Below are positions 4,587 through 40,482 of a stretch of 64,000 bases of DNA, piece by piece (position 1 is the first letter of the stretch; each line of letters starts with the position of its first letter). The DNA is taken from the IMG/VR virus record IMGVR_UViG_3300032330_001040, positions 1 through 64,000 of that record; one strand, given 5' to 3'. The position numbers were made by a program, and so were the translations under genes. The stretch comes from a virus. Lineage: Duplodnaviria; Caudoviricetes. Below the pieces are notes generated by a model. It saw nothing but the letters and a program-made list of their open reading frames with translations, had not been told where the DNA came from and ran no database searches.

Positions 4587-4594
4587 TATAAATA
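4587..4594 (+). promoter_or_regulatory. T4-type late promoter TATAAATA (gp25)
   Basis: Exact consensus, 4 nt before the ATG; gp55 is encoded in the window. Confidence 0.85.
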
Positions 4595-21064: not shown

Positions 21065-21292
21065 ATGTTAGTCAAAGTAAATAATTCCACTTTTGTAAGA
21101 GACACAAATAGTATGGCTCTTATGGATACTGATATGGCTTCTAAAAATGAATACTTATCCAAAGTTCGTATGTTACAGACACAAAAAGAAGAAATAAATA
21201 AAGTAAAATCAGAAATTGCAATCGTCAAAGATGACCTTCAAGAAATCAAACATCTATTGACACAATTAATAAGCAAAGGTTCAAATGTCTAA
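21065..21292 (+). CDS. Small conserved coiled-coil protein of T4-like phages
   Basis: ATG at 21065 ([19 protein letters not shown]...EINKVKSEI...EIKHLL); usual position after the DUF4815 gene. Confidence 0.7.
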
Positions 21293-24200
21293 CGCATATT
21301 CTTTATTAAGTACTGGTAATACTTTTGGTGATTGGATTGTTACAACTAATGCTTTAGTAAAAGAAAACAATGATTTTCATGCCAATAATTACCATAAAAA
21401 TGCAGGTACGTTATACTTAGATGATTCTTCATTAGGACTACAAGTAAATAATCAAGCAATTTTTGCTGGTTCTTTACAAGTAACCGGTACTGGTTCGTCA
21501 GCAACTATTCAAAATAATTTAACAGTACAATCAGGACAAGTATATTTTCAAAATACACAATTAACTTTAGTTGCTTCTGGTCTTATACAAGCCAATGGTC
21601 CTGGTACAGGACTTTATGTTGCTAATACTTCTAATCTTGCTGGCAGATTAAATGTTACAGGTAATACTTTTTTAGGAAACAATTTAAATGTAGTTTACAA
21701 CACAACTACAAGTAACAGTATAACATCACTTGATTCATATGTTGGTAGAACTTTAAATGTAGTTGGAAAAACTTGGACTGATGTATTACAAGCCAATACA
21801 AGTGCCAATACTGCACTATTAACTGTTACTGGTAGAGCATATGTAGATGTATTACAAGCCAATACATCAATAAACACAGCAAATTTAAATGTTACAAATA
21901 ATGTAACAACTGCTAATTTGGTTGCTACAGGTAGTGTTTATGTAACTACTAATATAAATGCAGCTAATATCGTATCAACCAATGTTACGGCTTCTGGTAA
22001 TATATTTTCATCGAATTCTTTTGTTACAAGTAATATTACCACATCAAATGTAGTAGCCACAGGTAGTGTTTATGTAACCAATAATGTTACAACATCTAAC
22101 GTGGTTGTTACAGGTAGTGTTTATGTAACTAGCAATATTAATGCAGCCAATGTTGTGTCTACAAACGTAACTGCTTCAGGTAATATATTTTCATCTAATT
22201 CTTTTGTTACAAGTAACATAACTACATCTAACGTGGTTGCTACAGGTAGTGTGTATGTAACCAATAACGTAACTACATCTAATGTAGTAGCCACAGGTAG
22301 TGTCTATGTAACTACTAATATTAATGCGGCCAATATTGTATCAACCAATGTTACCGCTTCTGGTAACATTATAAGTTCTAATGTATTTGTAACCAATAAC
22401 GTAACTACATCTAATGTAGTAGCCACAGGTAGTGTGTATGTAACCAATAATGTTACAACATCTAACGTGGTTGCTACAGGTAATGTATGGGTTAATAGTA
22501 ATGTACAGGCATCCAATGTTGTAGCTTCGAAATTATATGTTTCAGGTACAACACAGTTAGTTGGTACAGCAAATACTACTGCTGACTTAGGAGTTGGAGG
22601 TAATTTGAATGTACCTAATGCTTTATTCATGGGTAATTCAACATCATCTGCAAACATTTATAATTTAACTGTTGGTCAATCACCGGGAAATGGTGGATTA
22701 ACTGTTCAAGGTAATTTCACTATTGCACAACCAACAATCTATCAAGCACCAAGCTTTACATTGTATGGTGGCACAGCAATTACAGCAGGTAATTATGCAT
22801 ATTTTAATGTAAATAGATTGCCTGGAACTAATGCTTCAATTCGTTGGAATGAAACAAATAAAGAATGGGGCGTTGCAAACGTCATTAGTGGTTCTGTTTA
22901 TCGTATTGTAACTGATGAATATGCAAATGGTAGTTCATCATCAAGTAACTCGATGACATATGCCACTTCGTATGCCTTGGCAAATGCTAATACATTCTTA
23001 CAAAATTTAGATACTGCATCTAATACTGCCATGAAGGCATATGTAGACCAAGCTAATACAGGCATGGCATCATATGTAGTTGCTTCGAATACTGCCATGA
23101 AAGCATATGTGGACCAAGCTAATACAGGCATGGCATTATATGTAGTTGCTTCTAATACTGCTATGAAGGCATATGTAGACCAAGCTAATACTGGTTTAAA
23201 ATCATATACTGATGCTACACATTTCGCAAAATCTGGTGGAGATATTACAGGAACAACAAATGTACAAAGTACATTATTTGTAACATCAACATTGTCAGCC
23301 AATGGTGGTATAAAAATTGGCAGTACAACCATTGCAAATGCTGCTGGTTATTGGACAGGTCCTACTGCTCCTGGTTTTCAAGGTCCTCAAGGATTCCAAG
23401 GCGTACAAGGTGTTGCTGGTTTTCAAGGTCCCCAAGGATTCCAAGGTGTTCAAGGTGCTACGGGACCACAAGGTCCTCAAGGATTCCAAGGTGCTACTGG
23501 TGCTCAAGGTGCTACTGGTGCTCAAGGTCCTCAAGGATTCCAAGGTGCTACTGGTGCTCAAGGTGCTACTGGTGCTCAAGGTCCTCAAGGATTTAATGGA
23601 TTTAATGGTACACAAGGTGCTACTGGACCACAAGGCGCTACAGGAGCTCAAGGACCTACAGGAAGTCCAGGTGGTACAGGACCACAAGGTTTATCAAGTG
23701 GGTCAAGTTTAGTAGTTAGCGGTCCTTTAACTGTTGGCACACAAGGTGCTCCAAATATATCTGCATATATTCAAAATAGTGGCCAAGGGCAAATTTTAGC
23801 TAATACATATTTGACTGGTGTTGGCACCACTAGTGGTAATAATGTTGTCTGTGTCACCACAACCGGAGGCCTTGCCAAGGCAATAAGGTTTGTGGCGCAA
23901 ATAAGCCCAACTAGCTTTACTGATTGGGGTTATCTTGGTGCTGCAGGTCCAATTACTCCGAGTAGTAACTGGTCAATTCAAATGACTGCTACTGGAAAAA
24001 CTTACTACTTTACTTCAGATGGAGATTTTACAGCACCAGGTAATATCACTGCCTACTCTGATATGAGACTGAAAACTAATGTAACTACAATTTCTGGTGC
24101 TTTAGATAAAGTTTCTGCTCTTCGTGGTGTAAGTTTTGATAAAGACGGCAAACGTGGTCTTGGTGTAATTGCTCAAGAAATTCAAAAAATATTACCAGAG

Positions 24201-24323
24201 GTTGTACTTGAAAATAATGATGATGATAAAACATTATCTGTAGCTTATGGTAATATTGTTGGTGTTCTGATTGAAGCTATCAAAGAACTCAAAGTTGAGA
24301 TTGACGAATTGAAGAAAAAATAA
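21285..24323 (+). CDS. Tail fibre with beta-repeats, coiled coil, short collagen and C-terminal peptidase S74 intramolecular chaperone
   Basis: N-terminal NTFGDW motif; repeats; Gly-X-Y run; [12 protein letters not shown]...GVIAQEI...[17 protein letters not shown]. Confidence 0.85.
21880..22530 (+). repeat. Intragenic tandem repeats encoding [16 protein letters not shown]-type units (beta-helix shaft)
   Basis: Many near-identical DNA and protein copies. Confidence 0.85.
23015..23205 (+). repeat. Three 66-nt repeats ([22 protein letters not shown]), coiled coil
   Basis: Direct repeats visible in DNA and protein. Confidence 0.85.
23373..23696 (+). repeat. Collagen-like Gly-X-Y repeat (~36 triplets)
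   Basis: [12 protein letters not shown] triplets. Confidence 0.9.
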
Positions 24324-27806: not shown

Positions 27807-28937
27807 ATGGCAAATACAACAATAGTATTAAAAAAATCTGGAGTTCCTGGCAACGTACCATCAACACTAGCCAACGGTGAACTTTCGATTAACTACGCTG
27901 ACGGTAAATTATTTTATCGTGCGGCTAATGGAACAATCTCAACAATTTCCGGTTCAGGCGGAGGCGGAAGTTCGGCAAATTCTTTTGCCACAATTAATTC
28001 AAACTCATCTTTAATATTAGCTACAAGTGCCAGCGATACACTCACTTTTATTGGTGCAAATGGTATTAGTATTACAACGAATACAACATCAAAAACAATT
28101 ACTATTGGTCAAGGTGCTACAGGTCCACAGGGTGTACAAGGTGCTACAGGTCCACAAGGTTCTCAAGGTTCAACTGGACCTCAAGGTGTACAAGGTGCCA
28201 CAGGACCTCAAGGTGTACAAGGAGCTACCGGTCCACAAGGTTCTCAAGGTTCAACTGGACCTCAAGGTGTACAAGGTGCCACAGGACCTCAAGGTGTACA
28301 AGGAGCTACCGGTCCACAAGGTGTACAAGGTTCAACTGGACCTCAAGGTTCTGTAGGTGCTCAAGGTTCTACTGGACCTCAAGGTGTACAAGGAGCTACC
28401 GGTCCACAAGGTGTACAAGGTTCAACTGGACCTCAAGGTTCTGTAGGTGCTCAAGGTTCTACTGGACCACAAGGTTTTCAAGGTTATCAAGGTAGTATAG
28501 GTCCTTATGGTCCAACAGGCCCTCAAGGTAGTACAGGACCTCAAGGTGTACAAGGTGCGGCCGGAACATCAACGAATTCATTTGCAACAGTTAATGCAAA
28601 TGGAACTCCAATTTATGCGGATACTTCAACAGATGCATTGAACATTCAAGCTGGTAATAATATTACCATATCAGCAAATAGTTCAACAAAAACCATCACA
28701 ATTAATTCTACAGGTGGTGGCGGTACAAGCCAAGGTATTGGTGGTTATAATCATTCAACATTAAATTATTTTCCGGTGTATGATTATTTAAAAAATGAAA
28801 GTTATGATGAAAATGAAGCCTATGTTGGTGAAGCAGGTCCTACAGTTGATGCTTTTGGAATTAGTTTGACTACATCTTTTGATTGTATGGATCCTATAGG
28901 CAGTACACAAATATCAGATTTAGGAACTATATCATAA
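27807..28937 (+). CDS. Collagen-containing fibre protein
   Basis: IVLKKS...GELSIN N-domain; about 51 Gly-X-Y triplets flanked by two copies of an NSFAT...KTITI domain. Confidence 0.8.
28113..28571 (+). repeat. Collagen Gly-X-Y repeat with near-identical DNA units ([15 protein letters not shown])
   Basis: Highly periodic DNA, indicating recent expansion. Confidence 0.9.
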
Positions 28938-28976: not shown

Positions 28977-31049
28977 ATGCCATCACAAGTACAATTTAGA
29001 AGAGGTAATACTGCACAAGTCCAAGCTTTTACAGGAGCTGTGGGTGAAATTGCAATTGATACAACAACAAAACAAATTTCTGTTCAAGACGGAGCTACTC
29101 CTGGTGGTACATATTTAGCTACACAAAGTTTTGCTCAAGCGGCATACAATACTGCCAATAGCGCAGCATCTGGTGCATATGCAACGGCAGCTTTTGATAC
29201 TGCCAATGGCGCATTTATAAAAGCAAACACAGCCAATACTACTGCTGATGCTGGATTTGCCAAAGCAAATTTAGCCAACACACTTGCTCAATCAGCATTT
29301 AATCAAGCGAATACAGCCAACGTTACCGGTCAATCTGCCTTTGATAAAGCAAATGTGGCAAATACAATTGCTCAATCATCATATAATTGGTCTAATACAA
29401 TTAATGTATTTGCTCAATCAGCATATACTATGGCAAATACGGCCAACATTACTGGCCAAGCTGCCTTTGATAAAGCAAACTTAGCCAATATTACCGCTGA
29501 TGCTGGATTTGCCAAAGTAAATACAGTTTTACTTTATGCGCAATCAGCATTTTCTTTAGCAAATACTACTTCAACAGTATCTCAATCTGCATATGATTGG
29601 TCTAATACAATTAATGTATTTGCACAGTCAGCATATAGTAAAGCCAATGTGGCCAATACTACAGCAGAAGCAGGATTTGCTAAAGCAAACGTAGCTAATA
29701 CAACAGCAGATGCTGGTTTTGCCAAAGCAAATTTAGCCAATACGTTAGCTCAAGCTGCTTTTGATAGAGCAAATACAAAATTTAATTCGTCTGGTGGTAC
29801 AATTTCTGGTGATGTTACTGTAACAGGTAATATATTACCAACATCAGCAAATACAAATACTTTAGGTTCAGCAAGTTATCCTTGGAAATCAGTTTATGTT
29901 GGACCAAATTCATTATATATTGGTGACATAAAATTAAGTAGTGTTGGTGGTGCATTACAGTTAGATAATGCAACAAATCTTGTATTAAATGGAACATCAG
30001 TACCAAATAGTTCAGATATTTCTTTAACTGCTAATGCAGCCTTTGCTAAAGCCAATATAGCTAACACTACGGCTGATGCTGCTTATGCTTGGGGTAATAC
30101 AATTAATGTGTTTACTCAATCTGCTTTTTCAAAAGCAAACGTAGCCAATACTACTGCTGATGCTGGATTTGCCAAAGCAAACTTAGCCAATACTCTTGCT
30201 CAATCAGCATATGATAGTTCAAATACAGTTTTAGTATATGCACAATCGGCATTTTCTTTAGCAAATACTACTTCAACAGTAGCTCAAGGTGCTTTTGATA
30301 GAGCGAACACAAAATTCAATTCTTCTGGTGGTACAATTTCTGGTGCAGTTACAATTTCAGGCAATAATAGTTTAACTGTTACTGGTAACTTAATCGTTCA
30401 AGGTACAACATTTAGTTCCAATACAACAACATTTGAATTGAATGACCCATTAATATTATTAGGTGTTGGTAATTACTTATCAGATACTAAAGATATTGGA
30501 TTTGCTGGTCACTATAATGATGGTACAAATGCTCACTCAGGACTTGTTCGTGATTCAAGTACAAAAGAATATTACTTCTTTAAAGGATATACTCCTGATA
30601 TTGATGCAAATAATAACGTTGATATTTCACACTATTCATTTGCTACAGCCAACGTAAACGCTAATAAAGTTACTGCTAAAGACATGGTGGCTAATACATT
30701 TACCATGTATGATAATGCTTGTACTTCAATTTCACTTACTTCAGTAGGTTCGGCTTGTACATCATTTTTAAATATGAGTTCAACTGTTGATACATGGTCT
30801 TCAATGACATATCGTACTGCAAAATACTTGTGTCAAATAACTGCAGGTTCAAGTTATCATGCAATAGAATTATTAGCAATACATGATGGTAATACAGCCA
30901 ATTTAGTTCAGTATGGTGAAATTGTAACTGCAAATTCTCTTGGTTATTTTGATGCCTATGTAATGGCAGGAACATTCACACTTACATTTACACCAACAGT
31001 CAATCAATACTCTTTTATTAAATTTACAAAAGAATTGGTTAAATCTTAA
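28977..31049 (+). CDS. Fibre protein with Mtd_N-like N-terminus, AFxKAN coiled-coil repeats and C-terminal YRTAKY domain
   Basis: QVQFRRG..AFTGAVGEIAIDT; repeats; DTWSSMTYRTAKYLCQI...ELLAIHDG...QYGEI. Confidence 0.8.
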   Translation: MPSQVQFRRGNTAQVQAFTGAVGEIAIDTTTKQISVQDGATPGGTYLATQSFAQAAYNTANSAASGAYATAAFDTANGAFIKANTANTTADAGFAKANLANTLAQSAFNQANTANVTGQSAFDKANVANTIAQSSYNWSNTINVFAQSAYTMANTANITGQAAFDKANLANITADAGFAKVNTVLLYAQSAFSLANTTSTVSQSAYDWSNTINVFAQSAYSKANVANTTAEAGFAKANVANTTADAGFAKANLANTLAQAAFDRANTKFNSSGGTISGDVTVTGNILPTSANTNTLGSASYPWKSVYVGPNSLYIGDIKLSSVGGALQLDNATNLVLNGTSVPNSSDISLTANAAFAKANIANTTADAAYAWGNTINVFTQSAFSKANVANTTADAGFAKANLANTLAQSAYDSSNTVLVYAQSAFSLANTTSTVAQGAFDRANTKFNSSGGTISGAVTISGNNSLTVTGNLIVQGTTFSSNTTTFELNDPLILLGVGNYLSDTKDIGFAGHYNDGTNAHSGLVRDSSTKEYYFFKGYTPDIDANNNVDISHYSFATANVNANKVTAKDMVANTFTMYDNACTSISLTSVGSACTSFLNMSSTVDTWSSMTYRTAKYLCQITAGSSYHAIELLAIHDGNTANLVQYGEIVTANSLGYFDAYVMAGTFTLTFTPTVNQYSFIKFTKELVKS
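29130..30345 (+). repeat. Ala/Asn-rich coiled-coil repeats (AFDKANVANTTA...) with a duplicated AFDRANTKFNSSGGTISG block
   Basis: Repeats visible in protein and DNA. Confidence 0.8.
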
Positions 31050-31072: not shown

Positions 31073-32500
31073 TTGGCCACATCAAATTTATTTGTAGTTA
31101 AAAACGGTTTAGCCGTTGGTAACACAAATGTTATCAATTCTTCAGGACAATGGATAGGACCAAGTACTAATATTACTGGTCCTTCTGGTGCTCAAGGACG
31201 TAATGGTGTTCAAGGTTCTACAGGTCCAACCGGTAATACAGGTGTTTCTGGTATTCAAGGACCACAAGGACTTGCTGGAGCTCAAGGTCCACAAGGTTTT
31301 CAAGGCCCCCAAGGATTTCAAGGACCTACAGGAACTCCTGGTGTACAAGGAACTTTAGGTGCTTCAGGTGTACAAGGCGCTACTGGACCACAAGGTGTAC
31401 AAGGTGCTCAAGGACCTCAAGGCAGTACAGGTTTTCCTGGACCTTCAGGTCCATCTGGCGTTCAAGGACCACAAGGTGTATCAGGAGTGCAAGGTGCTCA
31501 AGGTACTACTGGTCCACAAGGTTCACAAGGACCAACAGGCGCTCAAGGTCCATCTGGTGTTCAAGGCCCTCAAGGTACTTCAGGCAGTGCAGGTTTTCAA
31601 GGACCACAAGGTTTAAATGGTGCTCAAGGCACTCAAGGACCACAAGGCGCTCAAGGTCCAGTAGGTAGTAATGGTCCTCAAGGTGCTCAAGGTGGGCCTG
31701 GTTTAATAGGTCCACAAGGTGCAACAGGAGTTACAGGTGTTCAAGGTCCTCAAGGTTCATCTGGAACTGTTGGTGCTACTGGAATTCCTGGTGGTACAGG
31801 TCCAACAGGTCCTCAAGGTGTTCAAGGTCCATCCGGTGTACAGGGTGCTCAAGGACCAGCAGGCGCTCAAGGTCCAGCCGGTGCTCAAGGTTCAGCAGGA
31901 AGTCCTGGCGCTCAAGGACCAGCAGGCGCCACAGGTCCTACAGGTACACCTGGTGCTCAAGGACCTACAGGTGGTTCAGGTCCAGCCGGCGCTCAAGGTC
32001 CAACAGGACCCACAGGACCAACAGGACCCACAGGTCCAACAGGTCCAACAGGACCATCAGGTTCTGGTACGACTTCATCTACTGGTTCTGTTTCCGCATT
32101 AGGAGTTAATGCTTCAGTTGGACCTACAGGTACGATTCAATGTTCGGGTGACATCGTTGCTTTCTATTCTGATGAGAGACTAAAAAAGAATATTGAAATC
32201 ATAAAAGATTGTTTATATAAAGTACAGAGTATGACAGGAATATATTACACAATTAATAAAGTGGCAGAAAAACATGGTTTTACAGATTATAGTAGACAAG
32301 TTGGTTTAATTGCACAACAAATTGAATCTTTTGCACCTGAAGTTATTAAACCAGCACCGTTTGATATAGATGAAAATGGCGATAGTAAATCTGGACAAAA
32401 TTATTTAACTGTACAATACGAAAAAATAGTTCCAATTCTCATTGAAGCAATTAAAGAACAACAAACGAGAATTAAAATATTATTGGAGGAAAGTAAATAA
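31073..32500 (+). CDS. Collagen fibre chain A (98 Gly-X-Y triplets) with S74 auto-cleaving chaperone; TTG start
   Basis: FVVKNGL anchor; collagen 31178-32059; [13 protein letters not shown]. Confidence 0.9.
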
Positions 32501-33945
32501 TGGCTACCAATAATAATTTTAATATTAAAAATGGTTTAACAGTTTCTAGTGCATCATCTAATACTTCTGTTATTAATTCTAGTGGTGTTTGGACAGGACC
32601 AACAACAAATATTCAAGGCGCTCAAGGACCTCAAGGTACACAAGGTGTACAAGGTGCCACAGGACCTCAAGGTTATCAAGGTTCACAAGGTGCAACAGGA
32701 TTTCAAGGCGTAGCTGGTGTTCAAGGTGCTCAAGGTCCAAATGGTAATCAAGGTGCTCAAGGTGTGTCTGGTGTTCAAGGTGCTCAAGGTGCTACCGGTC
32801 CACAAGGTTCACAAGGACCTGCTGGCGCTCAAGGTGCGCAGGGTTCATTAGGAGCTCAAGGCACAATAGGAAATTCAGGTGTTCCAGGAACTCAAGGTGC
32901 CACAGGTTCTACAGGTGTACAAGGTGCACAAGGTAATGCTGGCGCTCAAGGTTCTTCAGGTTTTCCTGGACCTTCAGGTCCATCTGGTGTTCAAGGTGCT
33001 CAAGGACCTACAGGTATGGCTGGTTTTCCAGGTCCTCAAGGTGCACAAGGTGTACAAGGTGCTCAAGGTGCTCCAGGTTCTTTAGGTGCTCCTGGTATTC
33101 CAGGTGTTTCGGGACTTCAAGGACCTACTGGTTCTTCAGGTGCTCAAGGTCCAGCAGGACCACAAGGTGTTCAAGGCCCCGCAGGTCCTACAGGACCACA
33201 AGGTGTTCAAGGTTTTCAAGGTGCTGGAGGTTCTTTAGGTGCTCCTGGTAGACAAGGACCTTCTGGTGCTCAAGGTCCGGCAGGATTTCCAGGACCAACA
33301 GGAACAACTGGACCTACAGGTAGTACAGGATTTCCAGGACCTTCAGGCCCAGCCGGTGCTCAAGGACCTACAGGTTTTACAGGCAGACAAGGTTCTACAG
33401 GAAGTCCAGGTCCTTCCGGTGCTCAAGGACCAGCAGGCGGTACAGGTAGTACCGGACCTCAAGGTCCAACAGGACCTACAGGACCTACAGGTCCATCAGG
33501 AACATCTCCTTCAAGTTTATCAACATCAGTTAGTGCTTTAGGTGTAAATACTGCCGCAGTTACCACAGGATGGTTACATGCAACAGGTGATATTGTTGCT
33601 TATTATTCCGACATACGACTTAAAGATAATATTGAAACTATTAAAAATGCCGGCGATAAATTATATACACTTAATGGAATTTTTTACACACAAAATAAAT
33701 TTGCTGAACAGTTTGGTTATAATGATTATAAAAGGCAAGTTGGTTTAATTGCACAAGAAGTTCAAAAAATTATGCCAGAAGTTATTAAACCAGCACCGTT
33801 TGATGTAGATGAAAATGGTAATAGTAAATCAGGTGAAAATTATTTAACTATTCAATATGAAAGATTAATTCCACTTATTGTAGAAACTATAAAAGAACAA
33901 CAAAAAGAAATTGAAGAATTGGAAAAGTTAAATGGCCACCAATAA
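32500..33945 (+). CDS. Collagen fibre chain B (98 triplets) with S74 chaperone
   Basis: FNIKNGL anchor; collagen 32617-33498; [13 protein letters not shown]. Confidence 0.9.
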
Positions 33946-35356
33946 TAATTTTATTGTTAAAAATGGATTAGCTATTGCTAATACCACATCCAATACTGTT
34001 GTAATTGCTGCTAACGGTGTTTGGGTTTCTTCACAATCATCCTATAGTGGTTATCAAGGTCCTCAAGGACCACAAGGTGCATCAGGTGTTCAAGGACCAC
34101 AAGGTTCTGTAGGTACACAAGGTCCTCAAGGTGCACAAGGTACTGTTGGTCTTTCAGGATTTCAAGGCGCAATAGGTTTTACAGGTGCTCAAGGTACACA
34201 AGGACCAACAGGCGCTCAAGGTTCTTCAGGTTTTCCTGGACCAAATGGCGTTCAAGGACCGGCAGGAGTTGCAGGCGTTCAAGGTAATTTAGGTCCTCAA
34301 GGTAGTCAAGGACCTACTGGTGCTCAAGGTCCACAAGGTTTTCAAGGACCTTTAGGTTCACCTGGTGTTCAAGGACCATTAGGTGCATCTGGTGTACCTG
34401 GCGCTCAAGGCACACAAGGTTCTCTTGGCCCTCAAGGTTTTATGGGAGCATCTCCAACAGGACCTCAAGGATTTCAAGGAAACTTAGGTTCACCTGGTGT
34501 TCAAGGAGCTCAAGGCAGACAAGGACCACAAGGTTTTCCTGGACCAAATGGCGTTCAAGGACCTGCTGGTCCAGCCGGCTTTCAAGGACCTGTAGGTTCT
34601 CCTGGTTCTCTTGGTAGACAAGGTGTTCAAGGACCAACAGGTGCTCAAGGCCCAGCTGGCGCTCAAGGACCACAAGGCCCCGCAGGTGTTCAAGGTTCTA
34701 CAGGACCTAGTGGCGTTCCGGGTACAACAGGCCCACAAGGAACTTTTGGCGCTTCAGGATCCACAGGTCCTCAAGCGGCTTCAGGTGCACAAGGTCCTCA
34801 AGGACCACAAGGACCTACAGGACCATCTGGTGCTCAAGGACCAACAGGTGGTACAGGTGCAACAGGACCTACAGGACCTACAGGAAGTCCAGGTGGTACG
34901 GGACCAACAGGTCCTCAAGGACCTTCAGGAGGTTCAGTAACACAAGTTGTTGCATTAAATGTTAACACTTCTGGTGCACCAACTGGTTATGTTTATGCTA
35001 CATCAGATATAACCGTTTTTTATTCTGATAAGAGATTAAAAGATATTGAAACAAACATACAAGAAGCATTACAAAAAGTAAATGAATTAAATGGTGTATA
35101 TTATGAACAGAACGATTTAGCTAAAAAGATGGGTTATAATAATGATGGTGAAAAACAAATAGGTTTAATTGCTCAGAATGTTCAGAAAGTTTTACCAGAA
35201 GTTATAGGATTGGCGGCTTTTGACACAGATAAATATGGACAGAGCAAATCAGGAAATAACTATTTAAGTATAAAATATGCAAAAATAGTACCTCTTTTAA
35301 TTGAAGCTCTAAAGCAACAGAAAGAACAGATAGAATATATTAAATCAAAAAAGTGA
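33932..35356 (+). CDS. Collagen fibre chain C (293-aa helix, two imperfections) with S74 chaperone
   Basis: FIVKNGL anchor; collagen 34049-34927; [13 protein letters not shown]. Confidence 0.9.
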
Positions 35357-35368
35357 AAGTGAATTATT

Positions 35369-35941
35369 ATGAATGGTGAATGGTGTTACTTTAAATCATA
35401 TTTTTCTCCAGAAAATTGTCAAAAAATTATTGATGATGCGGCAGATATACCGGTACAAGACGGCATTTTAGGTACTGGTGAAAATACTACGGTAGATTTA
35501 TCTTTTAGAAGAAGTAAAATTCGGTTTGTTAATTCTGACAATCCAAAATTTACTTGGTTATTTGATGAGTTATGGAAAACAGCTCTACAAGCAAACAGAG
35601 ATTTTTTCAATGTGCATATTACAAGATTACCATTTATTCAAATTGCTGAATATAATTATCTTGATAAAGGTGAATACAAAGAACATCATGATGTTTTTTG
35701 GTTAAACAATGATCCAATATACCACAGAAAACTTTCCTGTATTATTCAATTAAGCGACCCAAATGATTATCAAGGTGGTGATTTTGAAATTACAGAAGGT
35801 GTGGCGCCCCTCGATAAAGAAATTAAAAATCAAGGTTCAATCATTTACTTTCCTTCAATGTTTAGGCATCGTGCAAACCCTGTCCTAAGGGGTACTAGAT
35901 ATAGTGTAGCAGCCTGGTTTGAAGGACCTAAGTGGAGATAG
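35369..35941 (+). CDS. 2OG-Fe(II) oxygenase (prolyl-hydroxylase-like superfamily)
   Basis: HHD...RKLSCIIQLSDPNDYQGGDF...FPSMFRHRANPV.RGTRYS..AW. Confidence 0.9.
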   Translation: MNGEWCYFKSYFSPENCQKIIDDAADIPVQDGILGTGENTTVDLSFRRSKIRFVNSDNPKFTWLFDELWKTALQANRDFFNVHITRLPFIQIAEYNYLDKGEYKEHHDVFWLNNDPIYHRKLSCIIQLSDPNDYQGGDFEITEGVAPLDKEIKNQGSIIYFPSMFRHRANPVLRGTRYSVAAWFEGPKWR

Positions 35942-35942
35942 A

Positions 35943-36662
35943 ATGAATGATATTGTTATGGAAGTTGAGCCTTTTAAATATTTCATAGTTGATAATTTTT
36001 TACCATTAAATACAGCCAAAAAACTCTCAATAGAATTTCCTGATTTTGATTCATCAATTTGGTATGATTATGATAATCCATTGGAAGTAAAAAAGACAAT
36101 CAACAATTGGTTTCATTTCCCACCATTAACGTATAAACTATTCAATGATTTAAATGGCATTGAATTTACTGATTCATTAAAAGATTTTATGGATTTAGAA
36201 AGTCTTTATTCTGATATGGGTTTATATGGAGGCGGCTGGCACATTCATGGTCGTGGTGGAAAATTAAATGTACATCTTGATTACGCTGTACATCCAAAAT
36301 TGAACCTAGAACGTAAACTCAATCTCATTTTATACCTAACACCAGATTGGGATCCAAAATGGGGTGGTAATTTAGAGTTCTGGTCACACGATGAAAAATT
36401 AAACAAACCAAAAGAAAAAATTAAAACAATTGATTGTGTTTTTAATCGTGCTGTTATTTTTGATACATCACAAAACTCATGGCATGGTTTCAATGAACCA
36501 ATTAATTGTCCTGAAGGTGTGTATAGAAAAAGTGTGGCAACATACTATCACACAGATTTATCTCCAACTACACCAAAAAGAAAAAGAGCATTATATAGTC
36601 CATCAAAAGAACAAGAGAATGATAAAGAAATATTAGAATTGATTGAAAAGAGAGCAAAATAA
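35943..36662 (+). CDS. 2OG-Fe(II) oxygenase (2OG-FeII_Oxy_3 / prolyl hydroxylase-like)
   Basis: GGKLNVHLD, LNLILYL..DW...WGGNLEFW, FNRAVIF..SWHG, RKSVATYY; ATG 35943 after a GGAG SD. Confidence 0.9.
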   Translation: MNDIVMEVEPFKYFIVDNFLPLNTAKKLSIEFPDFDSSIWYDYDNPLEVKKTINNWFHFPPLTYKLFNDLNGIEFTDSLKDFMDLESLYSDMGLYGGGWHIHGRGGKLNVHLDYAVHPKLNLERKLNLILYLTPDWDPKWGGNLEFWSHDEKLNKPKEKIKTIDCVFNRAVIFDTSQNSWHGFNEPINCPEGVYRKSVATYYHTDLSPTTPKRKRALYSPSKEQENDKEILELIEKRAK

Positions 36663-38386
36663 TGGTTGAAAAAAAATGTAAAATTGTAATGACTACAATG
36701 TTTCAAAATGAATCTAAAACAATTAGAAGAATGTTGGAGTCTTGTTACAAATATATTGATTTTTGGGTAATACAAAATAATGGTTCAACAGATGGTACAG
36801 AAGAAATTGTCAAAGAGTTTTTTACTGAACATAAAATACCTGGTTTTTTATACAATGTGGAAGAAGGTTGGGTTGGATTTGGTTGGAACCGTGACCACTT
36901 AACACAAACTTGCCAAAGTATTGACCATGGTTGTGATTGGATTCTTAAAATGGATTGTGATGAGATTCTACAAGTAGATGATGATTTCGATTGGTCAATA
37001 CTAGATGATACATCAGTTCATTCTTGGGAAATTCCTTGTGTTCAAGGCACATCAACATACACTAGATGTTGGATGTGGAATGCAAAAATGAAATGGAGAT
37101 TTAATCACGACCCATGCCATGAAACTGTCTATTGTGCTGATGAGACTATTGGTGATAATTTTCAAAGAGTTTTATTGCCACAATCATTTAGACAAACTGG
37201 TTTTAACGAAGGTCAAAGTTGGGGAGTACCAACCAAATTTATGAGTCACGCTCTCATCTTAGAAGAAAAGATGATGGTCGAAGATAGTTTTAAAACAAAC
37301 CTATATCATTTTTGGTATATTGGTAAAAGTTATTTTGATGCTTGGGAATCAAATAATTTTCCATTGGGTGAAAGCCAAAAGAAAGAATATGGTCGTAGAT
37401 GTATCTATTATTTTAGTGAATATCTAAATCATACACACAGATTTGATGAAACACAATCAGCACAATTTATTGATGAAGTTTCTTATATGTCTATGTTAAT
37501 GATTGCACAAATCTATGGATATTTTAAAGACAATGAAAAACAAATAAGTTATTTAAAATTGGCAAATTCTTTTGCACCAGGTAGAAATGACCACTTTTTA
37601 TCTTTAGCATATAAGTACCAAGAATTAGGAGATTGGAAAAATATGCATCAGTATACAAGTATTATGATGCAACCCGAAAGAACAAATGCCTACCCAACTT
37701 ATACTAATTTTGTTAATTCAGCTATGTATCATGACGGTGGACCTTTAATACATGACTTGCATCAATTTGCAAGTAGTAAATTACAAGAAGAAAATAATTT
37801 ACACAATGAACATCCACCATTTTATATTAATAAATCATATGGTAAAAAATTGTTTGTTGTGGATAATTTCTACAATGATCCAGACACAATTAGAGAGTTT
37901 GCTTTAAATCAAGTTGAATATAAAGAAGATTTGAGATGGTATAAAGGACTTAGGTCTGTAAGACCATATCGTCCAAAAGGAATTAAAGAAGCCTTTGAGT
38001 TTATTATGGGTGAACCTATTGTGGATTTTGAACAAGGTTACAATGGTGTATTTCAAATTTGTATAGCACAAGACCCACAAGTTTATCATTATGATATGCA
38101 AAAATGGGCTGCCATGATATACATGACACCAGATGCACCATTAGAAAGTGGTACAAGATTACATAGGTCTAAAATTAATGGTGCCAGAAGAGCAACAGAT
38201 GCTGATGCTGATAGAGCTTTCTCTGGTGGATTTTATGATTCTACCAAATTTGATATTGCCGATTCAGCTGGTAACCTGTATAATAGATTAGTCATCATGG
38301 ATGCCAGATGTATTCATTCGGCAGGACCATATTTTGGACAAAACAAACAAGACGGCAGACTGACACATTTATTTTTCTTTGATTAA
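36662..38386 (+). CDS. Fusion: GT2 glycosyltransferase + TPR-like helices + C-terminal 2OG-oxygenase-like (DUF6445-like) domain
   Basis: NESKTI.RML.S...NGSTDGT, MDCDE (DxD), HET; helical middle region; VVDNFY.DPD...HYD...WAAMIY.TPDAP..SGT...YNRLVI...HSA...RL. Confidence 0.8.
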   Translation: MVEKKCKIVMTTMFQNESKTIRRMLESCYKYIDFWVIQNNGSTDGTEEIVKEFFTEHKIPGFLYNVEEGWVGFGWNRDHLTQTCQSIDHGCDWILKMDCDEILQVDDDFDWSILDDTSVHSWEIPCVQGTSTYTRCWMWNAKMKWRFNHDPCHETVYCADETIGDNFQRVLLPQSFRQTGFNEGQSWGVPTKFMSHALILEEKMMVEDSFKTNLYHFWYIGKSYFDAWESNNFPLGESQKKEYGRRCIYYFSEYLNHTHRFDETQSAQFIDEVSYMSMLMIAQIYGYFKDNEKQISYLKLANSFAPGRNDHFLSLAYKYQELGDWKNMHQYTSIMMQPERTNAYPTYTNFVNSAMYHDGGPLIHDLHQFASSKLQEENNLHNEHPPFYINKSYGKKLFVVDNFYNDPDTIREFALNQVEYKEDLRWYKGLRSVRPYRPKGIKEAFEFIMGEPIVDFEQGYNGVFQICIAQDPQVYHYDMQKWAAMIYMTPDAPLESGTRLHRSKINGARRATDADADRAFSGGFYDSTKFDIADSAGNLYNRLVIMDARCIHSAGPYFGQNKQDGRLTHLFFFD

Positions 38387-38389
38387 ATT

Positions 38390-39661
38390 ATGAAACAATA
38401 CAAATTTAGTTTTATCACACCTGAACACAGTCCAGAAAATATACCATATTTACTTGAATTATACGATTCAATTATTAATCAAACATATTCTAATTGGGAA
38501 TGGATTATTTTAACAAATAATAAATGTACTCCACATCATTTACCAGAAAAAATACAAAATGATTTAAGAGTAAAAATATTTCATTGGAATGGACAAACAG
38601 CCAGTATTGGCCGTTTAAAATTAGATGCGTTTAATTTGGGTACAGGTGATATATTAGTTGAAGCCGACCATGATGATATGTTTACTCCAGATTGTTTAGA
38701 AGAATTAAATAAAGCATACCAAGATGAATCAACTGGATTTGTTTATTCAGATAATGCTGTTTATCATATGAAAGATGAATTTGTTCCTTATTCATCAGAC
38801 AATGGCTGGACCTATAAAATGTATAATTGGAAAGGTAAAGATTTGTATGCGATGCATAGTTTTGAACCTTCTAGTCACAGTTTAGGTTATATTTGGTTTG
38901 CGCCAGACCATGTAAGAACATGGAGAGCATCCGTGTATAAAGAAATTGGTGGCCATAACCCCGAATTAGAGATTTGTGATGACCATGAATTGTGTATTCG
39001 AACTTACTTAAAAACTAAGATGGTTCGTATACCTAAGGTTCTCTATATTTACAGAGTTACTGGTGTTAATACATCAATGAACAGTAGAAATGCCGATATA
39101 CAAATTAAAACTGTAGAATTATTTAATCAATATGCAAGACAGTTGGCAGAAAAGGATGCTGATAATAAAGGATTATTAAAAGTAGATATTGGTGGAGGAT
39201 TAAATCCATTTCCAGGTTATGTGACGGTAGACCTTAGAGATACGGCTGATTATCCTAACTGTGATTTAAATGATGGTATTCCTTTACCTGATAATTCAGT
39301 TGGAGTATTAAATGCCAGTCATATTTTAGAACATTTACATGATAAAACCAAAATCATGTCTGAAATACATAGAGTATTGGCACATGGAGGATGGGCTTTT
39401 ATTGATGTCCCTAGTACCGATGGACGTGGAGCATTTCAAGACCCCACTCATGTAAGTTATTGGAATGAAAACAGTTTCTTATATTATACAGATGCTTACT
39501 TAGCTAACTTTATAGACAATAAAAATATTAAATTTCAACAATATAGGAAAGAAACTTATTTTCCAAATGATTGGATGAAAAGTCTAAATGTTTTAGTAAC
39601 AACCGCTTGGTTAGTATCCATTAAAGATGGACCTAGATTACCAGGACTACTGAAGATTTAA
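38390..39661 (+). CDS. Fusion: GT2 glycosyltransferase + class I SAM-dependent methyltransferase
   Basis: SIINQTYSNWEWII, EADHDD, EIGGHN...CDDHELCIR; VDIGGG, SHILEHL, EIHRVLAHGG, QDPTH. Confidence 0.85.
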   Translation: MKQYKFSFITPEHSPENIPYLLELYDSIINQTYSNWEWIILTNNKCTPHHLPEKIQNDLRVKIFHWNGQTASIGRLKLDAFNLGTGDILVEADHDDMFTPDCLEELNKAYQDESTGFVYSDNAVYHMKDEFVPYSSDNGWTYKMYNWKGKDLYAMHSFEPSSHSLGYIWFAPDHVRTWRASVYKEIGGHNPELEICDDHELCIRTYLKTKMVRIPKVLYIYRVTGVNTSMNSRNADIQIKTVELFNQYARQLAEKDADNKGLLKVDIGGGLNPFPGYVTVDLRDTADYPNCDLNDGIPLPDNSVGVLNASHILEHLHDKTKIMSEIHRVLAHGGWAFIDVPSTDGRGAFQDPTHVSYWNENSFLYYTDAYLANFIDNKNIKFQQYRKETYFPNDWMKSLNVLVTTAWLVSIKDGPRLPGLLKI

Positions 39662-39665
39662 AACT

Positions 39666-39707
39666 AGTTTCTCCTGTTACATAAATACACTAATAATAGG
39701 AGAAACT
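39666..39707 (+). promoter_or_regulatory. 14-bp hairpin sequestering the gp13 SD, with late promoter CATAAATA (39680-39687) in its loop
   Basis: AGTTTCTCCTGTTA pairs with TAATAGGAGAAACT (one G:U). Confidence 0.85.
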
Positions 39708-39708
39708 G

Positions 39709-40482
39709 ATGGCAACAATAACAAATAGAAACGATTTCAAACAATATTGCCTTCGTAGACTTGGATTCCCTGTCATTGAAATTAACGTAGATGATGACCA
39801 AGTGGAGGACCGTATTGATGATGCGTTACAATACTGGCAAGATTATCACTTTGACGGATTACAAAAAATATATTATGTCAAAGCAATTCAACAAGCTGAT
39901 ATTAACCAAAAATATATTGATTTAAGTAATGTTGTCGATGCTTCCAACAATACGATGGAGATTGTGGGTGTTACCCGTGTATTTCCAATTACCGATTCAC
40001 AGGCAACTATTAATATGTTTGACTTGAGATATCAGTTACGTCTTAATGAGTTATATGACTTCACCTCCGCATCGTATATCAATTATACTTTAACACAACA
40101 ACACTTACGTTCTCTTGAACTTATGTTCACTGGAGAAGTTCCTATTCGTTTCCAAAGACACATGCAAAAACTGTTTATTGATTGGGCATGGGGCACTTCA
40201 CAAGCCAACGTTGGTGATGTTGTAGTTGCCGAATGTTATGCCTCAATTAATCCAAATGTTTATGGTAGAGTATGGAATGACCGATGGATGAAAGAATATG
40301 CCACAGCATTAATCAAAAGAATGTGGGGAAACAATCTCAAGAAATTTGCCGGATTACAATTACCTGGTAGTGTAACATTAAATGGTGACAAAATTTATCA
40401 AGAAGCAACAGATGAGATTGAAAATTTACAAAATCAAATGCAAACTGAATATGGCGCCCCTTTAGAAATTATGATGAACTAA
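39709..40482 (+). CDS. gp13: Neck protein gp13
   Basis: YCLRRLGFPVIEINVDDDQVEDRIDDAL; WMKEYATALIK..WGNNL.KF.GLQLPG. Confidence 0.95.
   Translation: MATITNRNDFKQYCLRRLGFPVIEINVDDDQVEDRIDDALQYWQDYHFDGLQKIYYVKAIQQADINQKYIDLSNVVDASNNTMEIVGVTRVFPITDSQATINMFDLRYQLRLNELYDFTSASYINYTLTQQHLRSLELMFTGEVPIRFQRHMQKLFIDWAWGTSQANVGDVVVAECYASINPNVYGRVWNDRWMKEYATALIKRMWGNNLKKFAGLQLPGSVTLNGDKIYQEATDEIENLQNQMQTEYGAPLEIMMN

Follow-up and report, generated by a model that had tools for sequence, protein, structure and literature searches.

The hydroxylation and glycosylation of collagen are established in animals and in mimivirus, and have been predicted for some bacteria. In animals, collagen galactosyl- and glucosyltransferases of the GT25 and PLOD-GT families act on hydroxylysine, and the mimivirus L230 protein, a lysyl hydroxylase-glucosyltransferase, reportedly acts on viral collagen-like proteins, as Luther et al. 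are said to have found in 2011. The cuticle collagens of the annelids Riftia and Lumbricus carry hydroxyproline (Hyp) at the X position of the Gly-X-Y triplet and galactosylated Thr at the Y position, and the GPT repeats of Bacillus BclA are O-glycosylated by neighboring glycosyltransferases (GTs). Iyer, Abhiman, de Souza and Aravind (2010, PMC2938197) predicted that bacteria hydroxylate and sulfate collagen-like and tail-collar proteins, and literature searches found no description of collagen hydroxylation or glycosylation for bacteriophage fibers. The present analysis concerns four adjacent genes, here called the cassette, at positions 35369–39661 of a 64,000-nt stretch of tailed phage DNA (the window), which is the first 64 kb of the 114-kb IMG/VR virus record IMGVR_UViG_3300032330_001040 (estimated completeness 69%). 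The cassette directly follows three genes for collagen-like tail fibers, and the favored reading, to which a probability of roughly 0.68 is assigned, is that the four genes form a late-expressed cytoplasmic tailoring module for these fibers. Since these enzymes accompany collagen genes in related phages, it is probable that the fibers are hydroxylated and glycosylated by the phage's own enzymes.

The neck and tail genes of this uncultured aquatic phage (gp13, gp14 and gp15) and its terminase gene are T4-like, with marine cyanomyophages and pelagimyophages as the nearest relatives; the csgF/csgG curli operon is described as a hallmark of the SAR11 pelagimyophages (PMC7029224). Every gene between 21 kb and 46 kb in the list of open reading frames (ORFs) is on the + strand, and the cassette forms a tightly packed part of this block between colC, the third collagen/S74 fiber gene, and a gp13-like neck gene. 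Its members, all on the + strand, are ox1 (35369–35941), encoding a 190-aa 2-oxoglutarate (2OG)/Fe(II) oxygenase of the prolyl 4-hydroxylase (P4H) superfamily with a PF13640 domain; ox2 (35943–36662), encoding a 239-aa OGFOD1/Tpa1-like 2OG/Fe(II) oxygenase that matches PF13640 and PF13661; ORF3 (36662–38386), encoding a 574-aa fusion of a GT2, a tetratricopeptide repeat (TPR)-like and a DUF6445 domain as defined by Pfam and an AlphaFold2 (AF2) model; and ORF4 (38390–39661), encoding a 423-aa fusion of a GT-A glycosyltransferase (GT2) and a class I S-adenosylmethionine methyltransferase, likewise from Pfam and a model. The gap between the end of colC (35356) and the start of ox1 is 12 nt, ORF3 overlaps ox2 by 1 nt and ORF4 begins 3 nt past ORF3, with gene junctions of −1 to 12 nt overall. 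The ORFs and Pfam matches thus confirm the preliminary description of this locus, which placed four such genes 12 nt past the third collagen chain and before gp13. In the whole 114-kb record, ox1 and ox2 are the only PF13640 genes. Comparison of the cassette with isolated phages by blastn returned just two short matches, and an NCBIfam search of the cassette proteins returned nothing above cut-off. The PHROG labels "DNA endonuclease", "minor coat protein" and "ferrochelatase" attached to proteins of this region were set aside as inherited annotations, because the Pfam and PDB matches give them no support.

Both oxygenases score well above the PF13640 gathering cut-off of 27 bits (ox1, 53.8 bits, 3.9e-14; ox2, 65.8 bits, 7.4e-18). 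In ox1, the facial triad H106-D108-H167 and the 2OG-binding R177-x-S179 are intact, and all are invariant in 12 homologues of 26–89% identity. A profile of the ox1 family searched against the PDB detected PKHD-type hydroxylases first (3e-12), human P3H1 next (2.8e-7), and after these the P4Hs of Bacillus anthracis, Chlamydomonas and others. ox1 therefore shares its PF13640 domain with animal collagen P4H (C-P4H), P3H1 and the bacterial and algal P4Hs (PDB 3itq, 5hv0 and 2jig), but its nearest relatives are of the PKHD/PiuC type rather than collagen P4Hs; a literature search on PiuC function found nothing. Unlike animal C-P4H, the phage system has no protein disulfide isomerase beta-subunit and no endoplasmic reticulum context, and its target would likely be X-position rather than Y-position Pro. 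The closest PDB relative of ox2 is OGFOD1, a ribosomal-protein prolyl hydroxylase (1.8e-10). Its HxD motif is H111-L-D113, numbered from an ATG at 35943, and the distal His and RxS were read by eye. The longest ORF would start at a TTG at 35919, giving 247 aa and a 23-nt overlap with ox1, but the ATG is the likelier start because it lies one base past the ox1 stop codon and behind a GGAG.

The ORF3 product combines an oxygenase and a GT in one polypeptide, encoded 1.3 kb downstream of the end of the collagen genes. Its AF2 model, built with 56 homologues, has a mean pLDDT (predicted local distance difference test score) of 95 and divides into a GT2 domain of GT-A fold (residues 1–185), a TPR-like helical domain (190–383) and a DUF6445 domain with the double-stranded beta-helix (DSBH) of prolyl hydroxylases (388–574). 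Pfam detects GT2 at residues 15–104 and DUF6445 (PF20043) at the C terminus with 28.1 bits against a gathering cut-off of 24, rising to as much as 43.5 bits in homologues; TPR matches in Pfam were found in the homologues, and a helical repeat domain is visible in the ORF3 model itself. The GT domain carries a DxD motif, D98-C-D100. In VIA-align comparisons of the model, residues 1–327 superimpose on the peptide glycosyltransferases SunS and ThuS with Z of 20.2–21.6 and a root-mean-square deviation of 3.2–3.6 over 275–284 residues at 14–16% identity, clearly above other GT2 enzymes (Z at most 15.8), and Foldseek matched the model to SunS/ThuS-type enzymes at an E-value of 3e-15. The sole PDB sequence match of ORF3 is GmaR, the Listeria flagellin glycosyltransferase. 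As in SunS/ThuS (PDB 7msn, 7msp and 7msk) and GmaR, the GT-A domain is followed by a TPR-like polypeptide-binding domain; unlike SunS/ThuS, ORF3 has an additional C-terminal oxygenase domain, and its proposed acceptor is a collagen repeat rather than a Cys or Ser of a helical hairpin. No glycocin precursor was found among cassette ORFs of at least 60 aa, smaller ORFs not having been searched; the candidate substrates beside it are collagen fibers, and ORF3, though SunS-like, is not classed with the glycocin enzymes.

The C-terminal domain of the ORF3 model (388–574) superimposes on OGFOD1, a Shewanella PKHD hydroxylase, PHD2, a Trichoplax PHD and a Pseudomonas P4H with Z of 12.8–13.8, and its H476-x-D478...H552...R566 residues are invariant in 10 homologues. 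A profile of this domain matched no PDB sequence, so its placement comes from fold comparison only; a literature search on DUF6445 found nothing. Weaker multi-domain Foldseek matches of ORF3 were to AspH, P3H1 and LH3 (PLOD3, PDB 6fxk), which share the pairing of TPR with oxygenase or of GT with oxygenase and all act on proteins; the LH3 match has an E-value of ~1e-7, with TM-scores of only 0.15–0.2. In pairing a TPR-like domain with a P4H/PHD-like DSBH, ORF3 resembles the C-P4H alpha subunit, P3H1 and AspH. It also resembles mimivirus L230 and animal LH3 in that an oxygenase is fused to a GT and, as in mimivirus, is encoded together with viral collagen-like proteins. Unlike L230 and LH3, its GT is a SunS-like GT2 and not PLOD-type, its oxygenase is DUF6445/PHD-like and not a lysyl hydroxylase, the domain order is GT-TPR-oxygenase, and the substrate cannot be Lys since the helices encoded in the window are Lys-free. 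As modeled, the single ORF3 chain would unite a glycosyltransferase of the peptide type with a TPR-like domain for substrate binding and a domain of the prolyl-hydroxylase type. A representative protein library held 4384 matches to ORF3, and among the 150 listed most match the C-terminal domain; relatives of ORF3 frequently bear an extra N-terminal methyltransferase domain. In isolate genomes there was no counterpart to the complete architecture, with matches at the level of domains only. A 585-aa protein of the giant virus Satyrvirus sp. (BFVD A0A3G5AE29) matches all three domains over the whole length of ORF3 (Foldseek E-value 4e-44, 22% identity), and the GT2-TPR-oxygenase fusion is therefore common to phages and Nucleocytoviricota. 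Among bacterial and metagenome-assembled contigs, five of the nine best DUF6445 matches have collagen repeats just upstream.

In ORF4, Pfam identifies GT2 at residues 18–146 (1.7e-12) and Methyltransf_11 at 288–338 (3.6e-9), and the GT-A motif is DHDD at residues 93–96. The model (pLDDT 82) matches K4CP, SpsA, heparosan synthase, WrtF and TarS with tied Z of 18–21.7, the first three reaching 20–21.7, and because so many GT-A enzymes match equally the type of acceptor is not readable from the fold. TuaG and WcaA of NCBIfam gave weak matches below cut-off.

The putative substrates are the paralogous collagen/S74 proteins encoded by colA (31073–32500), colB (32500–33945) and colC (33932–35356), all on the + strand, each of which ends in a Peptidase_S74 intramolecular chaperone; in ColA, Pfam scores the collagen region at 8.5e-44 and Peptidase_S74 at 1.5e-9. 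Their helices comprise 99, 99 and 97 triplets (295 in total), make up ~60% of each chain, and contain nearly all Pro, Thr and Ser of the chain in repetitive and accessible form. Recomputed compositions agree with the preliminary description, which had reported helices free of Asp, Glu and Lys with one or two Arg each and a Y position made up mostly of Gln, Thr or Ser with some Pro: Asp, Glu and Lys are zero and Arg is 1, 2 and 2, and per helix the Y position holds 42–44 Gln, 15–22 Thr, 10–12 Ser and 6–10 Pro. GFP, GSP, GTP, GVP and GIP triplets all occur. Pro occupies the X position 29–37 times per helix, GPT makes up 8–12 of the ~99 triplets in a chain, and 25–34 have Thr or Ser at Y. With no Lys in 295 triplets, the exclusion of lysyl hydroxylation in the same description was correct. 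The uncharged, Gly-Pro-Thr/Ser-rich helices resemble in part those of annelid cuticle collagen and BclA, whose stability or surface depends on Thr glycosylation and not on charge pairs or Y-position Hyp; they differ in that the annelid and BclA proteins are cellular and that the Y position in the window is dominated by Gln (42–44 of ~99 triplets). By this analogy annelid cuticle collagen appears to be the nearest chemical parallel. No genes for the biosynthesis of deoxy-sugars (rhamnose, anthrose) were seen in the cassette.

The association of the cassette with collagen genes was examined in relatives with three different anchors: ORF3, gp13 as a neutral marker, and ox1. Among 19 viral contigs anchored on ORF3, the order ox1-ox2-ORF3-ORF4 upstream of gp13 is retained down to ~55–60% identity, and synteny with gp13 is kept in loci L003–L019 and L106–L115. 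Collagen/S74 genes stand directly upstream of the relatives' cassettes, with further ones between ORF4 and gp13 in some; the distance upstream is 5.7–9 kb in L010, L137 and the record of L009. Every full-cassette locus that shows upstream genes has collagen, except L121 with its 2.8 kb of upstream sequence. The gp13 anchor yielded 80 contigs of 44–81% identity, and 40 whole records were searched with PF13640 and PF01391. Both were found in 7 records, collagen only in 2, PF13640 only in 8 and neither in 23 (odds ratio 10, Fisher p=0.0077); when only strong ox1-type matches are counted in the same 40 records, the distribution is 7/2/3/28 (Fisher p=2e-4). In 7/7 of the double-positive records the PF13640 and collagen genes are at most 6 kb apart. 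Record length does not drive this result, because large, near-complete records without collagen also lack strong ox1-type matches. With ox1 as anchor, 79 new contigs formed 58 clusters at 80% identity, of which 35 include a collagen ORF in the locus, lying within 1.2 kb of ox1 in 30 of them; in 15 of the 58 the flanks are too short to judge. Recurrent layouts are collagen/S74 with ox1, collagen/S74 with ox1 and a free-standing DUF6445 gene, and the full four-gene cassette. The nature of the domains, their intact catalytic motifs, the order of the genes and the covariation of enzymes with collagen were observed, and the functional coupling to the collagen fiber genes put forward in the preliminary description is well supported by the structure-based annotation and by the three co-occurrence tests.

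Among cultured phages, ox1 has its nearest homologues (45% identity) in the Synechococcus phages S-PRM1 (NC_055761; gp158–gp162, L102:1558–10399) and S-CAM9 (NC_031922; L103). There, an 1824-aa tail fiber is followed by a small ORF, two PF13640 oxygenases and a 614-aa GT protein. As in the window, an ox1 homologue is found directly behind a collagen/S74 fiber with a second PF13640 oxygenase and a GT-oxygenase fusion. The S-PRM1-type fiber differs in having a 59-triplet Lys-rich collagen helix with its S74 domain, and the 614-aa protein has GT25 (5e-29) and PLOD-GT (9e-46) domains, with a C terminus that matches the ox1 profile, whereas the window pairs Lys-free helices with GT2-TPR and GT2-methyltransferase proteins. 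The annotations found for these two cassettes were only "2OG-Fe(II) oxygenase" and "hypothetical protein"; the set corresponds to the animal-type enzymes of hydroxylysine glycosylation. Similar GT25/PLOD-type proteins of 607–618 aa follow L176 and L181, which have the sole two ox1-adjacent Lys-containing helices (0.18–0.20 Lys per triplet) among the IMG/VR loci, and the type is absent from every Lys-free IMG/VR locus examined. The cassette proteins of the window have no match to PF25342 (PLOD-type GT) or GT25 in Pfam. Enzyme type thus tracks helix composition, since in the loci examined Lys-rich helices are paired with GT25/PLOD proteins and Lys-free helices are not, and no other observation argues as strongly, in our view, for an action of such cassettes on collagen helices. 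By its predicted proteins and helices, the window shows what would be the Lys-independent version.

The likely site of modification was considered using 92 non-redundant collagen helices from related phage loci, most of them beside these enzymes. Per triplet, the median X-position Pro content is 0.38 and the median Y-position Pro content is 0.03; Y-position Pro is absent from 37 of the helices, and Lys, Asp and Glu are all absent from 50. The loci L130, L136, L142 and L145 have ox1 and no Y-position Pro, and no link was found between ox2 and Y-position Pro (L110, L113 and L117 have ox2 without it). The emphasis that the preliminary description had placed on Y-position Pro in triplets such as GFP, GSP and GVP is therefore not supported. 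Because nearly all of the enzyme-linked helices contain X-position Pro and many have none at Y, the likelier target, if proline is the substrate at all, would be mainly X-position Pro in Gly-Pro-Thr/Gln/Ser. In the ox1 profile search the P4Hs rank below P3H1, which in animals acts at the X position, though by too small a margin to decide the matter.

In the following scheme, the residues modified, the sequence of reactions and the benefit are what we infer from these data. ox1, ox2 and the DUF6445 domain of ORF3 would hydroxylate nascent or unfolded collagen chains, most likely on the X-position Pro of Gly-Pro-Gln/Thr/Ser triplets. ORF3's SunS-like GT2 domain, held on the repetitive chain by the TPR-like domain and coupled to its own hydroxylase domain, would attach the first sugar to a side-chain hydroxyl, either of Thr or Ser at the Y position or of the newly formed Hyp. 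The GT-A domain of ORF4 would then add a further sugar, which its methyltransferase domain would cap. The likely benefit would be triple helices that are stabilized, or altered at their surface, without any charge pairs. A broader proposal is offered more tentatively: collagen-maturation cassettes may form a family in aquatic T4-like phages, their enzymes varying to suit the chemistry of the helices, with GT25/PLOD-type enzymes for Lys-rich helices and ox1/ox2/DUF6445 plus SunS-like and GT2-methyltransferase enzymes for charge-free Gly-Pro-Thr/Gln helices, the version in the window possibly producing in the bacterial cytoplasm a collagen like that of annelid cuticle, in which X would carry Hyp and the Thr or Ser at Y a methylated glycan.

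Late expression of the cassette is suggested by its context. The gp13-like neck gene (39709–40482, +; phrog_211, 8e-43), the conserved anchor downstream of the cassette, is followed by gp14- and gp15-like genes and is preceded at 22 nt by the late-promoter-like motif CATAAATA (39680–39687, +). Matches to NATAAATA occur in the window at 4587, 13258, 18658, 24327, 39680 and 49978, all on the + strand and each no farther than ~240 nt ahead of a gene start; they are rarer than in shuffled sequences (2 against 12 expected, and 4 against 9) and constitute candidate late promoters. The canonical T4 late motif TATAAATA has only two copies in the window, and the pattern obtained with the looser NATAAATA, though usable, is a hint only. 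The interval between 24327 and 39680 is free of NATAAATA, so the fiber genes and cassette could be one late transcription unit that ends before the motif of gp13. A scan of 27–42.5 kb for sigma-70 promoters and terminators showed no + strand terminator between the cassette genes, but its counts do not exceed those of shuffled sequence and it carries no information.

More elaborate forms of the cassette are found in several relatives. In L010 (4272–8700) it gains two further GT2 genes as well as genes for a sulfotransferase and an APS-kinase/cytidylyltransferase-like protein (APS, adenosine 5'-phosphosulfate), which suggests sulfated glycans or sulfated hydroxyl groups. In L013 (6821–11038) a 1405-aa protein with two methyltransferase, three GT2 and one FkbM domain is encoded downstream of the cassette. 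In Synechococcus phage DSL-LC02 (L105:3123–9567), a mannosyltransferase, an FkbM methyltransferase of 717 aa and a DUF6445 protein that is likewise annotated as FkbM form a divergently oriented trio between a collagen-like protein and a 1787-aa tail fiber. The more distant phage L021 (360–12687) encodes three paralogous S74 fibers of YadA-like NTAxGxxAL repeats, many of them with N-x-S/T, followed by a sulfotransferase, a gene of unknown function, a free DUF6445 gene, GT2-TPR, GT2 and tail sheath, with no collagen, ox1 or ox2. The bacterial systems treated in PMC2938197 are similar in that co-encoded collagen-like proteins were taken to be the substrates of 2OG oxygenases, and the sulfotransferase and APS-kinase-like genes of L010 and L021 add to this likeness; they differ in that those systems use beta-hydroxylase and PhyH oxygenases, whereas the window has P4H/OGFOD1/DUF6445-type oxygenases linked to GTs in a phage structural operon.

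Several observations weigh against reading the cassette as a module for collagen fibers. SunS-type enzymes glycosylate Cys or Ser of short peptides and not collagen, the generic fold of ORF4 would be just as suitable for polysaccharide synthesis, and the more distant bacterial DUF6445 proteins have no collagen nearby. Genes of the ox1 type also occur without collagen, in 8 of the 43 evaluable ox1 clusters, which lack it despite at least 3 kb on both sides, and in L051 and L081. The enzymes and the collagen genes also share a hypervariable fiber region beside gp13, so that their proximity is partly positional, and the Fisher values are indicative only because the contigs are phylogenetically related and both gene classes sit in this one variable region. 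In L021, finally, GT2-TPR and DUF6445 follow three fibers that are not collagen. Because they occur there without collagen, ox1 or ox2, these two parts may serve trimeric fibers more generally, and ox1 and ox2 look collagen-specific. The last point bears on the idea of a general tailoring of fibers or virions that is not specific to helices, in which the N-terminal anchors, linkers, Mtd_N protein or other virion proteins would be modified and the link to collagen would reflect shared fiber ancestry. The NTAxG beta-helix fibers of L021 favor this idea, as does the conserved position of the cassette beside gp13 whichever fibers precede it. It is nevertheless improbable, as ox1 and ox2 are missing from L021 and from most non-collagen fiber loci, ox1 is so often within 1.2 kb of a collagen ORF, and the helices hold almost all of the Pro, Thr and Ser of the chains.

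The remaining alternatives place the substrate outside the virion proteins. Remodeling of the host surface, whereby the enzymes would alter the O-chain of lipopolysaccharide (LPS) or another envelope glycan and so block superinfection, is unlikely, if a shade less so than general tailoring. Zaragoza-Solas et al. (2020, PMC7029224) described GT-rich fiber regions in SAR11 myophages and proposed O-chain modification, the ORF4 enzyme is most like polysaccharide synthases, and the sulfotransferase and APS-kinase-like genes of L010 and L021 would also suit such a role. The four cassette proteins have no hydrophobic segment of membrane-span grade, however, and the gene products that were scanned, in the cassette and in its relatives, include no flippase or Gtr-type partner. 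The GT of ORF3 is of a peptide type and is fused to a protein-hydroxylase-type domain, the genes belong to a late structural block and not to an early one, and surface remodeling leaves unexplained both why ox1 and the cassette track collagen and why Lys-rich fibers come with GT25/PLOD enzymes. Little credence is given to oxygenases that act on host translation factors or ribosomal proteins, in the manner of PPHD on EF-Tu or OGFOD1 on uS12, or in small-molecule synthesis. The closest PDB relatives are indeed PKHD/PiuC-type enzymes of unknown substrate for ox1 and OGFOD1 for ox2, some ox1 homologues lie in non-fiber contexts (L131, L139 and L172), and PMC2938197 proposed secondary-metabolite roles for tandem cyanophage dioxygenases; the same paper, however, predicts the hydroxylation of co-encoded collagen-like and tail-collar proteins, and neither the strong co-occurrence with collagen nor the fusion of one oxygenase domain to a peptide-type GT with TPR would be expected. 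Hypermodification of phage DNA bases by the hydroxylases, glycosyltransferases and methyltransferase is very improbable. Phages do run oxygenase and GT pathways on DNA, of which PMC13326640 reportedly gives one example, but the oxygenases of the window are PF13640/OGFOD1-type protein hydroxylases with no TET/JBP or AlkB among their Pfam and PDB matches, the GT has a TPR domain of peptide-binding type, and the genes track collagen amid late structural genes.

Collagen repeats in the 114-kb record are confined to five fiber genes between 21.3 and 35.4 kb. In addition to colA, colB and colC, these are a gene for a 1012-aa fiber-region protein (21285–24323, +), which has a short collagen segment at ~23370–23627 (PF01391), and col0 (27807–28937, +), whose 376-aa collagen-like product has 51 uncharged triplets and no S74 domain. 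Between col0 and colA lies the gene for a 690-aa fiber protein with an Mtd_N-like N terminus (28977–31049, +; PF18454, 1.4e-10).

The proposed modification of phage fibers by the cassette is filed here, from sequence comparison and modeling, as a new, phage-borne and Lys-independent variant of collagen modification, with a putatively new GT2-TPR-prolyl-hydroxylase-like fusion at its center. If this is true, it would provide a concrete substrate for viral P4H genes and for the glycosyltransferases of pelagimyophage fiber regions, which would be reassigned from LPS modification to virion glycosylation. In viromes of the Baltic Sea, prolyl 4-hydroxylase is reported to rank with the viral auxiliary genes of greatest abundance, and its role was called "cryptic" (PMC9301287); the abundance of such genes in marine viromes would be explained. 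The enzymes would represent a Lys-independent route to stabilizing or decorating charge-free triple helices, and a compact, soluble and prokaryote-compatible set for producing modified recombinant collagens. Because S-PRM1 and S-CAM9, which carry the sister cassette, are in culture, the idea is directly testable. The host range and fiber stability of abundant ocean and lake phages would then hinge on a post-translational chemistry that is invisible in genome annotation.

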